Assembly (NCBI RefSeq): GCF_003334765.1
Contig: NZ_QOWT01000001.1
Source of the DNA: Escherichia coli
Lineage (GTDB): Bacteria; Pseudomonadota; Gammaproteobacteria; Enterobacterales; Enterobacteriaceae
DNA: 64,000 nt
Direction: 5' to 3' (one strand)
Below, in pieces: positions 7,135 through 64,000 of this stretch (position 1 is the stretch's first letter; the number at the start of each line of letters is the position of its first letter). The notes under the pieces were generated by a model, which was not told where the DNA came from, ran no database searches, and was given only the letters and a program-made list of their open reading frames with translations. Position numbers and translations under genes: made by a program.

Positions 7135-9927
<2,793 letters not shown>

Positions 9928-20204: not shown

Positions 20205-21485
20205 ATGTTACGTCCTGTAGAAACCCCAACCCGTGAAATCAAAAAACTCGACGGCCTGTGGGCATTCAGTCTGAATCGCGAAAACTGTGGAATTGATCAG
20301 CGTTGGTGGGAAAGCGCGTTACAAGAAAGCCGGGCAATTGCTGTGCCAGGCAGTTTTAACGATCAGTTCGCCGATGCAGATATTCGTAATTATGCGGGCA
20401 ACGTCTGGTATCAGCGCGAAGTCTTTATACCGAAAGGTTGGGCAGGCCAGCGTATCGTGCTGCGTTTCGATGCGGTCACTCATTACGGCAAAGTGTGGGT
20501 CAATAATCAGGAAGTGATGGAGCATCAGGGCGGCTATACGCCATTTGAAGCCGATGTCACGCCGTATGTTATTGCCGGGAAAAGTGTACGTATCACCGTT
20601 TGTGTGAACAACGAACTGAACTGGCAGACTATCCCGCCGGGAATGGTGATTACCGACGAAAACGGCAAGAAAAAGCAGTCTTACTTCCATGATTTCTTTA
20701 ACTATGCCGGGATCCATCGCAGCGTAATGCTCTACACCACGCCGAACACCTGGGTGGACGATATCACCGTGGTGACGCATGTCGCGCAAGACTGTAACCA
20801 CGCGTCTGTTGACTGGCAGGTGGTGGCCAATGGTGATGTCAGCGTTGAACTGCGTGATGCGGATCAACAGGTGGTTGCAACTGGACAAGGCACTAGCGGG
20901 ACTTTGCAAGTGGTGAATCCGCACCTCTGGCAACCGGGTGAAGGTTATCTCTATGAACTGTGCGTCACAGCCAAAAGCCAGACAGAGTGTGATATCTACC
21001 CGCTTCGCGTCGGCATCCGGTCAGTGGCAGTGAAGGGCGAACAGTTCCTGATTAACCACAAACCGTTCTACTTTACTGGCTTTGGTCGTCATGAAGATGC
21101 GGACTTGCGTGGCAAAGGATTCGATAACGTGCTGATGGTGCACGACCACGCATTAATGGACTGGATTGGGGCCAACTCCTACCGTACCTCGCATTACCCT
21201 TACGCTGAAGAGATGCTCGACTGGGCAGATGAACATGGCATCGTGGTGATTGATGAAACTGCTGCTGTCGGCTTTAACCTCTCTTTAGGCATTGGTTTCG
21301 AAGCGGGCAACAAGCCGAAAGAACTGTACAGCGAAGAGGCAGTCAACGGGGAAACTCAGCAAGCGCACTCTTGCTACCGCGATGACCCAACAACCACAAT
21401 CCCGCGCCCGTCTGGGCGCGGCTCGTGGGATTGCCACTTCATTGACCTTTGTCTGCCTGGCATTTCTGATAGGACCGAGCATTAA
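20205..21485 (+). pseudogene. uidA: beta-glucuronidase, 3'-truncated by an internal deletion; reading frame runs out of frame into uidB sequence
   Basis: Translation matches GH2 beta-glucuronidase from MLRPVETPTREIKKLDGLWAFSL... through ...[14 protein letters not shown] (about residue 388 of 603), then continues as unrelated [10 protein letters not shown]... to a stop at 21485. Confidence 0.85.
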
Positions 21486-60095: not shown

Positions 60096-61310
60096 ATGAA
60101 GATCGTAAAGGCTGAAGTTTTTGTTACCTGTCCGGGGCGTAATTTCGTCACATTAAAAATCACCACTGAGGACGGTATTACGGGCCTTGGGGATGCCACC
60201 CTCAATGGACGTGAGCTTTCCGTGGCCTCTTATTTGCAGGATCACCTTTGTCCGCAGCTTATTGGTCGCGATGCGCACCGTATCGAAGATATCTGGCAGT
60301 TTTTCTATAAAGGTGCTTACTGGCGTCGCGGTCCGGTTACGATGTCGGCCATTTCAGCGGTTGATATGGCGCTGTGGGATATTAAAGCCAAAGCTGCCAA
60401 CATGCCGCTTTACCAGTTACTCGGCGGCGCGTCTCGTGAAGGGGTGATGGTTTATTGCCATACCACCGGTCACAGTATTGATGAAGCTCTGGATGATTAT
60501 GCCCGTCATCAAGAGCTTGGATTCAAAGCCATCCGCGTGCAGTGCGGAATCCCTGGTATGAAAACCACCTACGGCATGTCGAAAGGTAAAGGTCTGGCTT
60601 ATGAACCCGCAACCAAAGGACAGTGGCCGGAAGAGCAGCTGTGGTCGACGGAGAAATACCTCGATTTCATGCCGAAATTGTTTGACGCGGTACGTAACAA
60701 GTTTGGTTTTAATGAACATTTGCTGCATGACATGCACCATCGCTTAACGCCTATTGAAGCGGCGCGCTTTGGTAAAAGCATTGAAGATTATCGCATGTTC
60801 TGGATGGAAGACCCGACGCCTGCGGAAAACCAGGAATGCTTCCGTCTCATTCGCCAACATACCGTCACACCCATCGCAGTGGGTGAAGTCTTCAACAGCA
60901 TCTGGGACTGCAAACAACTGATTGAAGAGCAACTCATCGATTATATCCGCACCACGCTGACCCATGCAGGCGGAATTACCGGTATGCGCCGGATTGCCGA
61001 TTTTGCTTCGCTGTATCAGGTACGTACTGGCTCACACGGTCCTTCCGATTTGTCACCAGTCTGCATGGCTGCGGCGCTGCACTTTGATCTGTGGGTCCCC
61101 AATTTCGGTGTCCAGGAATACATGGGTTATTCCGAACAAATGCTCGAAGTCTTCCCGCACAACTGGACTTTCGATAACGGCTATATGCATCCGGGAGACA
61201 AACCGGGTCTTGGTATCGAATTCGATGAAAAGCTGGCGGCGAAATATCCCTATGAACCTGCTTATCTACCATTCGCACGTCTGGAAGATGGCACGCTGTG
61301 GAACTGGTAA
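60096..61310 (+). CDS. rspA: starvation-sensing protein RspA (enolase-superfamily dehydratase)
   Basis: ORF track gives 415 aa; trimmed to [40 protein letters not shown]... (404 aa). Confidence 0.92.
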
Positions 61311-61321
61311 GGAGTAAGATA

Positions 61322-62341
61322 ATGAAAAGCATATTAATTGAAAAACCGAATCAACTGGCGATTGTCGAACGTGAAATACCCACCCCGTCAGCGGGTGAAG
61401 TACGAGTAAAAGTGAAACTTGCCGGAATTTGTGGTTCAGATAGCCATATTTATCGTGGGCATAATCCTTTTGCGAAATATCCGCGCGTCATTGGTCATGA
61501 ATTCTTTGGCGTCATTGATGCAGTGGGTGAAGGCGTGGAAAGCGCCAGAGTCGGTGAACGTGTTGCTGTCGATCCGGTGGTCAGCTGTGGGCATTGCTAT
61601 CCGTGCTCTATAGGTAAACCGAACGTTTGTACGACACTGGCTGTATTAGGTGTGCACGCTGACGGTGGTTTCAGTGAATATGCCGTGGTTCCGGCAAAAA
61701 ATGCGTGGAAAATTCCTGAAGCAGTGGCCGATCAATATGCGGTAATGATCGAACCTTTTACCATTGCGGCTAACGTAACCGGACATGGTCAACCGACTGA
61801 AAATGATACCGTTCTGGTTTATGGTGCCGGTCCAATCGGCCTGACGATCGTTCAGGTATTAAAAGGCGTCTATAACGTTAAAAATGTGATTGTTGCCGAT
61901 CGCATTGATGAACGACTGGAAAAAGCGAAAGAGAGCGGGGCTGACTGGGCGATTAATAACAGCCAGACACCGCTTGGCGAGATTTTCACTGAAAAAGGCA
62001 TCAAGCCGACATTAATTATCGATGCGGCTTGTCATCCTTCTATCCTGAAAGAGGCCGTAACGCTGGCTTCTCCAGCGGCACGTATTGTATTGATGGGGTT
62101 CTCCAGTGAACCGTCTGAAGTGATTCAGCAAGGAATTACCGGAAAAGAACTCTCTATTTTCTCTTCACGCTTAAATGCAAATAAATTCCCGATCGTTATC
62201 GACTGGTTAAGTAAAGGGTTAATTAAACCAGAAAAATTAATTACCCATACGTTTGATTTCCAGCATGTTGCTGATGCCATTAGTTTATTTGAACAGGATC
62301 AAAAACATTGCTGCAAAGTCTTACTCACTTTTTCTGAATAA
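61322..62341 (+). CDS. rspB: starvation-sensing protein RspB (Zn-dependent medium-chain dehydrogenase)
   Basis: ORF track gives 347 aa; trimmed to MKSILIEKPNQLAIVEREIPTPSAGEVRVKV... (339 aa); Zn-ADH motifs GHEFFG and Rossmann GAGPIG. Confidence 0.92.
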   Translation: MKSILIEKPNQLAIVEREIPTPSAGEVRVKVKLAGICGSDSHIYRGHNPFAKYPRVIGHEFFGVIDAVGEGVESARVGERVAVDPVVSCGHCYPCSIGKPNVCTTLAVLGVHADGGFSEYAVVPAKNAWKIPEAVADQYAVMIEPFTIAANVTGHGQPTENDTVLVYGAGPIGLTIVQVLKGVYNVKNVIVADRIDERLEKAKESGADWAINNSQTPLGEIFTEKGIKPTLIIDAACHPSILKEAVTLASPAARIVLMGFSSEPSEVIQQGITGKELSIFSSRLNANKFPIVIDWLSKGLIKPEKLITHTFDFQHVADAISLFEQDQKHCCKVLLTFSE

Positions 62342-62398
62342 TACCAATAACGGCGAGTAAGTAGTACGCATCTTACCTCTTTTTTAGAGATAACCATT

Positions 62399-62509
62399 AT
62401 GACAATAGAAAAACACGAAAGAAGCACTAAGGATTTGGTGAAAGCAGCAGTATCGGGATGGCTGGGCACTGCGCTTGAATTTATGGATTTCAAGAGTCAT
62501 GCGTGTTAA
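62399..62509 (+). pseudogene. 5' fragment (36 codons) of an MFS metabolite:H+ symporter gene interrupted by prophage insertion (ydfJ-like)
   Basis: Hand-translated MTIEKHERSTKDLVKAAVSGWLGTALEFMDFKSHAC*; the GxxLExxDF pattern resembles the N-terminus before TM1 of ProP/ShiA/KgtP-type transporters; the frame ends in AT-rich phage-like DNA. Confidence 0.55.
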
Positions 62510-62528
62510 CTATTTGATAAATATTAAA

Positions 62529-63809
62529 TTAATTTTTCATTGCTTCGTTATGGGGCATGGTTGGGGCAAACTCGCTTAACTGTGTATTTAACAAAGCTAC
62601 CTGTGCATTATTGTTTTCAGACATCCATTTTCCGTATACCTGAAATACCATTTGCGCATCTGCATGGCCCATCTGGTTTGCTATAAATGCCGGGTTAGCA
62701 CCAGCTGTCAGCGACCAGCAGGCATAAGTATGTCTCGACTGATATGATTTTCGATGGCGGAGTCCGGCACGTTTTATCGCTGCGTCCCACATCTGCCTTA
62801 TTGAGTCAACGGTAAAATGGTCACCATAATTTTTTACTCTCGCTGACACTTCAGGTTGAAAAACAAAGGTGCATTTTTGTTTTTCTGTTCTGCCATACTC
62901 TCTGAGGTGAACATCAATGATATGCTCTTTGCTCAGTCTCGTTAATGTCATCTGACTCCGGAGAGCGTCGATTGCTGGCTTAATAAGATGAATGACCCGA
63001 TTGGTTCCCGCCTGTGTTTTTGGTACCGTGAAACGGTCTTTTGCTAAATTTCTCCTGATCATCATTGTTCCATTTTTCAGATCTATGTCCTCCCATCCAA
63101 GTGCACACAGCTCACCAGGGCGAACTCCAGTATAAACAGAAACACACCATAAATTTTTTGCTTGCTGATTTCTGCACGCATCGATAAGACGGATAAATTC
63201 TTCCCGCGAAAGAGGATCCGGAATGGTTCTTGATTCCTTTAATGGCGAGATCCCCTTAAACGGATTATCTGCCAGGTAACCGTTATCAACACCAAACTGG
63301 AACACGGCGTTAAGATTTGTCATGTAATTATTTACAGTTACAGCCGATCTCCCTGGTTGTGTAACAATATAGTTACTTTTGGGGATCTGGTATCCAGTCA
63401 GTAACTCTTTACGAACCTCCAGTAATTTTTCTTTATTAATCGATGAGGCAAGATTTTTTTCACCGATTATGCTCAGGATATTTTTGATGACGGCACGGTA
63501 TGTGTTGAGTGATGTTTTGGCGACTTCAGTTTCTTTCAGTGCCAGAAATTTTTCAGCCAGTTCTTTTATGGTTAAATCTTGTCGGGCCTCACCAAATTTT
63601 TCCAGATTGCGTGAGGAGGGAAACTGTTTTGCATAGTCGAAAACACCAGTTTTTATTGCGTAACAAACAGAGGAGCGTAGTTCACCTGCAACGCGCCTGT
63701 TTTTTGCTGTGTCAGGAACCCCCAGATTTTCCCTGACTCTTACGTCTTTATAAACAAACCAGATACGTAATTTCCCTCCATGGTTTTCCACGCCTGTCGG
63801 ATATTTCAT
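62529..63809 (-). CDS. intQ: phage tyrosine integrase (site-specific recombinase)
   Basis: ORF track gives 431 aa; probable start MKYPTGVENHGGKLRIWF... (426 aa); C-terminal catalytic region with R-H-T-Y-A box, GH and QVYGKW tyrosine; symbol assigned by position. Confidence 0.8.
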   Translation of the reverse strand: MKYPTGVENHGGKLRIWFVYKDVRVRENLGVPDTAKNRRVAGELRSSVCYAIKTGVFDYAKQFPSSRNLEKFGEARQDLTIKELAEKFLALKETEVAKTSLNTYRAVIKNILSIIGEKNLASSINKEKLLEVRKELLTGYQIPKSNYIVTQPGRSAVTVNNYMTNLNAVFQFGVDNGYLADNPFKGISPLKESRTIPDPLSREEFIRLIDACRNQQAKNLWCVSVYTGVRPGELCALGWEDIDLKNGTMMIRRNLAKDRFTVPKTQAGTNRVIHLIKPAIDALRSQMTLTRLSKEHIIDVHLREYGRTEKQKCTFVFQPEVSARVKNYGDHFTVDSIRQMWDAAIKRAGLRHRKSYQSRHTYACWSLTAGANPAFIANQMGHADAQMVFQVYGKWMSENNNAQVALLNTQLSEFAPTMPHNEAMKN

Positions 63810-63843
63810 TTCAACTTCTCTCATTAGTTAGTGTGGCTTTTAG

Positions 63844-64000
63844 TCAAGTAAGATGACGTCTTGGTCTCGCTGATGCCTGGCGCTCAATCCAGCGATCAAT
63901 TTCTTCCAGGTTGTAAAAGCATGGACTGTTATCCCATGGCATACCGTCATGAGCGACATGCTTATATTCCCTTCCTTCCATAAACGATTTTTCCCGGGCC
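63844..64000 (-). CDS. excisionase-like protein (lambda Xis family), partial; N-terminus beyond the window end
   Basis: Minus-strand translation ...AREKSFMEGREYKHVAHDGMPWDNSPCFYNLEEIDRWIERQASARPRRHLT*; the EGREY segment resembles the DGREY region of lambda Xis; sits immediately upstream of int on the same strand. Confidence 0.5.
   Translation of the reverse strand, partial: AREKSFMEGREYKHVAHDGMPWDNSPCFYNLEEIDRWIERQASARPRRHLT

Follow-up and report, generated by a model that had tools for sequence, protein, structure and literature searches.

The end of the analysed stretch of Escherichia coli DNA (64,000 nucleotides in total, here called the window) raises the question of what occupies the chromosome directly downstream of the host genes rspA and rspB, and whether it has retained the means to leave again. 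Three open reading frames (ORFs) follow these genes: one of 36 codons on the plus strand and two on the minus strand, the first of 431 codons and the second only partial because the window ends within it. A sequence-only reading of this region had interpreted them as the start of an interrupted transporter gene, a tyrosine integrase gene and a gene resembling an excisionase, which together would mark the boundary of a prophage; all three were recovered from the ORF list in this arrangement. The features discussed below are:

60096-61310: rspA, host gene upstream of rspB
61322..62341, plus strand: rspB (Zn-dependent oxidoreductase), host gene directly upstream of the junction, equal to the rspB CDS of genome CFSAN061772 (L001 18981-20000, WP_000836066.1)
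62399..62509, plus strand: 5' fragment of ydfJ, equal to ynfP (b4534) of K-12, based on the ORF list, the K-12 annotation and the rebuilt ydfJ
62481..62491, no strand: attL crossover core TTATGGATTTC, 11 bp
62529..63809, minus strand: full-length Qin-type tyrosine integrase, 426 aa, based on Pfam and alignments (the longest ORF extends to 63824 and has 431 aa)
62549..62568, plus strand: two candidate arm-type integrase sites, TATGGGGCA and GTTGGGGCA, in the P' arm, based on the repeat pattern
63844..64000, minus strand: 3' part of the excisionase gene (51 codons plus the stop codon at 63844-63846), based on translation and Pfam
For comparison, Qin of K-12 MG1655, 1632277-1652745: truncated intQ (intQ', b1579), ynfP (b4534) and, at the far end, ydfJ (b1543)

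The segment 62300-63688 differs from the left end of Qin in K-12 MG1655 (NC_000913.3) at a single position, 62906, which changes Leu to Phe in K-12, and at least 80% of the stretch 62342-64000 is present in 2,710 of the 5,426 complete E. coli genomes. The one-base difference and this wide occurrence indicate that the junction is not a chance pattern. On the phage side (62492-64000) the G + C content is 42.5%, compared with 50.0% for the whole window, in agreement with the AT-rich DNA that had been described beyond the 36-codon ORF. The best explanation, in which we place very high confidence, is that a Qin-type lambdoid prophage is integrated site-specifically in codons 27-31 of ydfJ, downstream of rspAB, and that 62342-64000 is its attL junction; this confidence applies to the explanation as a whole, for which other genomes matching the window supplied attR and the remaining prophage sequence. 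The feature is an ordinary one, since about half of the sequenced E. coli carry a Qin-type junction at ydfJ. In a published survey prophages occupied this site in 48% of 638 strains (PMC6379469), a proportion that matches the 50% found here. A scan of the whole window against Rfam at gathering thresholds yielded no match.

The prophage beyond the window

The continuation of the element past position 64000 was read in two closely matching genomes. CFSAN061772 shows 5 mismatches in 21,659 bases over the last 21.7 kb of the window. NCTC9100, 100% identical in the last 25 kb, is the one inspected among five complete genomes that share the top score for this stretch. Past int, CFSAN061772 carries genes for an 83-aa excisionase and a 3'-5' exonuclease, followed by ydfD, dicB, relBE, hokD, rem, ydfU and ydfT and, further on, by cspF, cspB, essD, rrrQ, rzpQ, cspI, gnsB, ydfO, tail fragments, tfaQ, pinQ, ydfK and ynfT; the prophage ends with a gene annotated as 'ydfJ, missing N-terminus'. 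This gene set past the junction is that of the cryptic prophage Qin. NCTC9100 has most of the Qin genes and the ydfJ remainder, with IS remnants in place of ydfD and dicB, and its insert of approximately 23 kb contains IS fragments and several pseudogenes together with intact int and xis genes; CFSAN061772 is similar. The annotations of both genomes contain no head, replication or dicA/dicC immunity genes. The expectation of phage genes past 64000 was thus borne out in both genomes inspected, and each of them also contains the far end of the prophage with the 3' remainder of the transporter gene.

Because NCTC9100 and CFSAN061772 both carry remnants of approximately 23 kb, the prophage of the source genome is probably also a cryptic remnant of about this size and not a complete phage. 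Judging from the genes at its left end, we think that this remnant carries a working recombination module.

Four complete phage genomes bear on the size of the element. The int-xis-P' arm region of the window is 100% identical in PhiR42_1 and 98.9-99.6% identical in HannyBb, Tritos and mEp460_ev081, all of which differ from the window prophage in being complete phage genomes of 45-49 kb. PhiR42_1 also contains the exact predicted attP and the same order of xis, exonuclease and ydfD-family genes; a literature search found no paper describing this phage. The prophage behind the junction could accordingly be an entire lambdoid phage that is still inducible and, like PhiR42_1 or mEp460, 45-49 kb long, given the perfect identity of int, xis and P' arm with a phage of 48.7 kb that has cI/cro/cII and replication genes, and given that published ydfJ prophages range from 11 to 97 kb (PMC6379469). 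We nevertheless consider this unlikely, as the two close matches, one of them the inspected representative of the five top-tied genomes, carry the 23-kb remnant instead.

The integrase, the excisionase and the candidate arm sites

The start of the integrase gene is most likely the second ATG of the ORF, at 63809, because this codon is preceded by the Shine-Dalgarno-like stretch GAGAGAAG, is the start used by NCBI (WP_000876958.1), and lies at the residue equivalent to that at which homologues begin. The resulting protein of 426 aa agrees with the earlier observation of a frame that is intact over about 426 codons, and it comprises both domains typed by Pfam in the 431-aa ORF, namely an arm-binding domain (PF12167, residues 9-72, 8.7e-22) and a catalytic domain (PF00589, residues 206-397, 8.7e-18); the interval separating the two gave weak matches to SAM-like core-binding domains. 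The enzyme belongs to the lambda Int type of tyrosine recombinases and is probably heterobivalent. In phmmer searches the integrase matched the solved Tn1549 Int (6emy), XerA and others.

In the numbering of the 426-aa protein the catalytic positions are R230, K264, Y356, R359, H382 and Y392. In the HMMER alignment to Tn1549 Int (6emy), TGVRPGE stands opposite TGLRISE, VPKTQAG opposite EPKTQSG, SYQSRHT opposite PHAMRHT and MGHAD opposite MGHSN. The C-terminal YG falls next to the Tn1549 nucleophile, Y392 being offset by one residue from Y379 of Tn1549 in this automatic alignment, and no other Tyr of the segment is shared by all four IntQ/IntR-type sequences. An alignment of five sequences shows R230 and H382 to be invariant, and among the four of the IntQ/IntR type K264, R359 and Y392 do not vary. 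With lambda Int, BLASTP gave an alignment limited to the Arg I region, in which R230 lies opposite lambda R212, and MAFFT misplaced the lambda HELR box; the assignment of box II rests for these reasons on the HMMER alignment to Tn1549 Int and on inspection.

At the position of the HxxR histidine (H308 in lambda) the window integrase has a tyrosine, Y356 in SYQSRHT, and thus deviates from the classical His. The R-K-H-R-H-Y signature of characterised tyrosine recombinases, to which the sequence-only reading had suggested aligning the integrase, holds for its two Arg residues, the Lys, the second His and the Tyr, but not for its first His, so that the series reads R-K-Y-R-H-Y, as it does in the related integrases that were compared. 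The first His (HxxR) is the least conserved residue of the classical tetrad, and the 1998 survey of Int-family catalytic residues by Nunes-Duby is said to document its low conservation.

The substitution could nevertheless mean that the frame is open and the enzyme dead, the first His of the R-H-R-Y tetrad having been replaced by Tyr (YQSRHT versus HxxRH); Y356 stands opposite the His of pHamRHT in the Tn1549 Int alignment, and a manual alignment to lambda sets it opposite H308. A dead enzyme is highly improbable, however, in view of several lines of comparison. The same Tyr is found in Rac IntR (PYHTRHT) and in the integrase of Stx phage TL-2011c (AYQSRHT), and Rac is excision-proficient in K-12 (PMC4632033); Y356 is thus a residue common to the related integrases and not a lesion of the window copy. 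The integrase protein is 100% identical to that of the 48.7-kb phage PhiR42_1, and near-identical proteins are encoded in the three other deposited phage genomes. Comparison with a 93%-identical allele, located at the same junction in strain 2011C-4251, revealed 68 synonymous and 19 non-synonymous differences, and the resulting dN/dS of 0.067 indicates that the gene family is under purifying selection; all six catalytic positions are unchanged between the two alleles. From these comparisons we infer that the window copy of the integrase would be catalytically competent.

The integrity of the gene among E. coli was assessed in 60 records taken at even intervals from the ranking of the 3,051 genomes in which any part of it is present. 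The full 1,281 bp were present in one ungapped piece in 43 of these records (approximately 70%), whereas six showed the K-12 truncation, five the half gene of the O157:H7 type, and the others had other truncations or indels.

The partial ORF at the window end is the 3' part of a gene that is complete in CFSAN061772 (L001 21503-21754), where it encodes an 'excisionase family protein' of 83 aa (WP_000005552.1); in identical genomes the ORF would end at the window equivalent of 64095. The full protein matches PF06806 (DUF1233) over 69 of the 70 profile positions (1.9e-31) and is 26% identical to YdaQ/XisR of Rac (E = 2e-5). YdaQ received the name XisR once its role in driving the excision of Rac and its binding to attR had been demonstrated (PMC4632033). 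Comparison of the window excisionase with lambda Xis gave a BLASTP E of 9.5, and PF07825, the lambda Xis family, was not reported by Pfam. The description of this ORF as lambda-Xis-like was therefore right as to function and position but not as to sequence family, which is DUF1233. An excisionase of the DUF1233/XisR type encoded upstream of int would direct the reverse reaction and thereby restore ydfJ exactly.

The candidate arm-type sites TATGGGGCA and GTTGGGGCA are direct repeats 11 bp apart that overlap the 3' end of int, and two of the seven plus-strand copies of TGGGGCA in the 64-kb window lie here, at 62549-62568. In PhiR42_1 there are four matches to TGGGRCA in 8.3 kb, which belong to repeats of the form T(T/A)TGGG(G/A)CA, and all of them cluster in a 225-bp stretch around attP. 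Each side of the core has two of them, in the same orientation and spaced by 11 bp; the pair in the P' arm starts 58 bp from the core, and the pair in the P arm ends approximately 120 bp away. As the total in these 8.3 kb is not above that in shuffled sequences (4 versus 2.2), it is the arrangement of the motif around attP, not its count, that is suggestive of arm-type sites. In its pattern, this layout resembles that of the P and P' arm sites of lambda. A promoter and terminator consensus scan of 62200-64000 returned no more sites than shuffled sequences, and therefore no promoter of int-xis can be named.

The attachment site and the interrupted ydfJ gene

The crossover core TTATGGATTTC reads TT-ATG-GAT-TTC and lies in the region of ydfJ that encodes L-E-F-M-D-F; imperfect similarity extends into its left flank, GAAT(T), and its right flank, xAG. 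It is the sole block of at least 11 bp common to the attL region of the window and the attR region of CFSAN061772 (L002 6399-6409), and represents the direct repeat at both prophage ends that the sequence-only reading had anticipated. That reading had put the attachment site at about 62490-62530, but the core at 62481-62491 lies some 10 bp further to the left, inside the 36-codon ORF. Phage DNA begins at 62492.

When the phage halves of the two junctions are joined, they correspond exactly to positions 967-1077 of PhiR42_1, where the core occupies 1017-1027 and is flanked by ynfT and int. The attP of this phage thus equals the phage side of attR, the core and the phage side of attL, and attB is formed by the host sides. 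The attB, attP, attL and attR sequences are mutually consistent, because the host halves rebuild ydfJ and the phage halves yield the attP of PhiR42_1. In the source genome attR is expected to read ...CACCTGTGAATTATGGATTTCCAGTTATAT..., followed by the remainder of ydfJ. For ydfJ prophages, Nakamura et al. (2021; PMC8112680) give an att sequence with a length of 18-19 bp, and they obtained the attP of PPydfJ-R from O26:H11 strain 11368 by PCR of the excised form. The published 18-19 bp sequence probably comprises the 11-bp exact core found here together with its imperfect flanks.

The gene that was interrupted could be reconstructed by joining the host half of the window to the ydfJ remainder of the near-identical genome CFSAN061772, which resulted in an in-frame ydfJ of 455 aa. 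A 600-bp probe placed over the rebuilt junction showed 100% DNA identity to contiguous, unoccupied ydfJ sites, which are annotated as rspB followed by 'ydfJ: MHS family MFS transporter', and at least 80% of the probe was covered at one place in 2,011 genomes (approximately 2,000 of the 5,426 complete E. coli). A comparison of the empty ydfJ sites with the reconstruction across the junction found no difference. The rebuilt protein scored 462.9 bits against TIGR00883 (metabolite/H+ symporter), above the curated cut-off of 443.45; the alignment to this profile begins at residue 23, that is, within the 36-codon fragment, and the ShiA model aligns from residue 5. The assignment of the short ORF to the N-terminus of an MFS transporter, which would have been untenable if the fragment did not align to one, is thereby upheld by both the profile score and the identity to the empty sites.

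Codons 1-31 of ynfP (62399-62491) are host ydfJ sequence, and codons 32-36 with the stop codon (62492-62509) are phage DNA. Integration thus reduced the 5' end of ydfJ, its first 31 codons, to a stump of 36 codons and placed the remainder of the gene at the far end of the prophage. The ATG within the core corresponds to Met29 of intact YdfJ and is the annotated start of the 427-aa ydfJ of K-12. Taken as the start of the ydfJ remainder, it agrees with the published account according to which Qin inserts at the 5' end of ydfJ and removes the promoter and 28 N-terminal codons (PMC6379469). That the 36-codon ORF is instead an independent small-protein gene can scarcely be maintained: ynfP is annotated as a CDS ('protein YnfP', b4534) in K-12 MG1655 and, retaining the start codon and upstream region of ydfJ, may well be translated, but intact ydfJ begins with the identical 31 codons in approximately 2,000 genomes and the last five codons and stop of ynfP derive from the phage DNA directly past the core, and the ORF therefore exists only where the prophage occupies the site.

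Relationship to known prophages and significance

The Qin-type prophage integrated in ydfJ shares with Qin of K-12 the site, the core and the neighbours rspA and rspB, and many of the downstream genes are common to K-12 and the genomes matching the window. In MG1655 the junction is annotated as rspB, ynfP (b4534, 36 aa), intQ (pseudogene b1579), IS2E and ydfE', and both the earlier identification of the locus with Qin and the description of the K-12 integrase as defective are borne out, intQ being a pseudogene cut by IS2E. The two prophages differ in that K-12 intQ is interrupted by the IS2E remnant at the window equivalent of 63689 and lacks 40 N-terminal codons (most of the arm-binding domain), and in that K-12 has lost xis and part of the exonuclease gene, whereas the window has a complete int and also contains xis, of which the matching genomes carry the entire gene. 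K-12 Qin, in turn, retains the dicA/dicC region, which is absent from the matching genomes. Since the sequences agree with one mismatch up to 63688 and diverge into IS2E at 63689, K-12 intQ is equivalent to the window gene minus its first 40 codons. Excision of Qin was not detected in K-12, which the authors ascribed to the inactive intQ (PMC3105296).

The PPydfJ prophages of EHEC and EPEC use the same attB in ydfJ, and detection of the attP of one of them, PPydfJ-R, by PCR shows excision (PMC8112680); they are large, often tandem, effector-carrying lambdoid prophages, whereas the window allele is of the commensal or K-12 type. Rac resembles the window prophage in the PF12167 and PF00589 architecture of its integrase (42% identity, with the same Tyr in place of the first catalytic His), in the DUF1233-type excisionase XisR (YdaQ; 26% identical), and in its integration into the 5' end of a host gene, whose N-terminus is altered (PMC4632033). 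It differs in having its attB in ttcA, with another core, and in that its int and xis genes abut directly. The similarity to lambda lies in the organization, with an integrase of arm-binding, core-binding and catalytic domains encoded beside attP, a P' arm that overlaps the 3' end of int, and xis just upstream. The lambda Int protein, in contrast, is only 19-21% identical and has an arm domain of another Pfam family, the excisionases have no detectable similarity, and the lambda att site is located between genes and not inside a coding sequence as it is here.

Earlier publications have covered the prophage Qin and its integration in ydfJ, how often a prophage occupies this site, the experimentally derived attP of ydfJ prophages and the inactivity of K-12 intQ, and nothing in the window is new. 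Beyond correct annotation, the 'defective' intQ of K-12 being a copy that has been shortened by its first 40 codons, the significance is small. The share of full-length copies and the presence of the identical gene in a deposited phage genome are relevant to the view that its integrase keeps Qin trapped in the chromosome, which has been tested in K-12 only. One could speculate that in the many E. coli lineages with Qin reduced to a 23-kb remnant int and xis are kept intact because occasional excision serves the host, the prophage then being a reversible switch ('active lysogeny') and not an inert scar, but we regard this as very unlikely. If it were true, excision would reconstitute ydfJ precisely and bring rspAB and ydfJ-ydfI together again as a cluster for sugar-acid uptake and catabolism. 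The genes rspAB-ydfJ-ydfI may be linked to L-gulonate catabolism; a literature search for this link found nothing usable. In strains like the source of the window, excision of the Qin remnant and restoration of ydfJ may still be possible.

The prophage integrase and its K-12 counterpart

Over the part of the gene that K-12 (NC_000913.3) retains, the full-length integrase in the window differs from intQ at a single base, position 62906, which is G in the window and A in the reference and changes Leu to Phe. This difference is not present in several other K-12 records, which match the window at 100.0% over their retained 1,160 bp, and the integrase of CJ236 matches it at 99.9%. The A at this position may be a variant confined to some K-12 records.

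The ydfJ remainder and the interior of Qin

The att core, the 11-bp crossover block common to both prophage ends, includes an ATG that is in frame with ydfJ, as seen at attR in the near-identical genome (L002, 6399-6409) and in K-12 (L003, 4278-4286), both outside the window; an in-frame start codon therefore still heads the ydfJ remainder after integration. The K-12 annotation treats this remainder as a CDS of 427 aa, but in other strains PGAP labels it a pseudogene.

Two Qin remnants, that of NCTC9100, which is identical to the window over its last 25 kb (L009, 1985-8565), and that of the near-identical genome CFSAN061772 (L001, 21827-28215), have no annotated dicA/dicC/ydfA-C region. Where these genes would be located, both genomes carry a DUF977 fragment, a SAM-dependent methyltransferase, and IS fragments (IS30 and ISNCY remnants). 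A dicB annotation is still present in the remnant of CFSAN061772.

Repeats and RNA families in the window

The rsxC coding sequence contains a tandem array at 7181-7702 (96-bp unit, 5.4 copies, 91% matches), whose unit corresponds to 32 codons and is in frame. The array probably corresponds to the variable repeat region already known in RsxC. In an Rfam scan of the whole window (1-64000), no family reached the gathering score.

An apparent deletion across uidA and uidB

Compared to CFSAN061772, 1,039 bp are missing at 21369|21370, encompassing approximately 650 bp of the 3' end of uidA (beta-glucuronidase) and approximately 400 bp of the 5' end of uidB. The junction shows 4 bp of microhomology (CACT), and the deletion left the following feature:

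20205-21485, truncated uidA ORF of 426 codons

Among 5,426 complete E. coli genomes, not one held a contiguous match to a 1-kb probe spanning the junction. The deletion thus seems to be private to the source strain, which, as predicted from its sequence, should be glucuronidase-negative.
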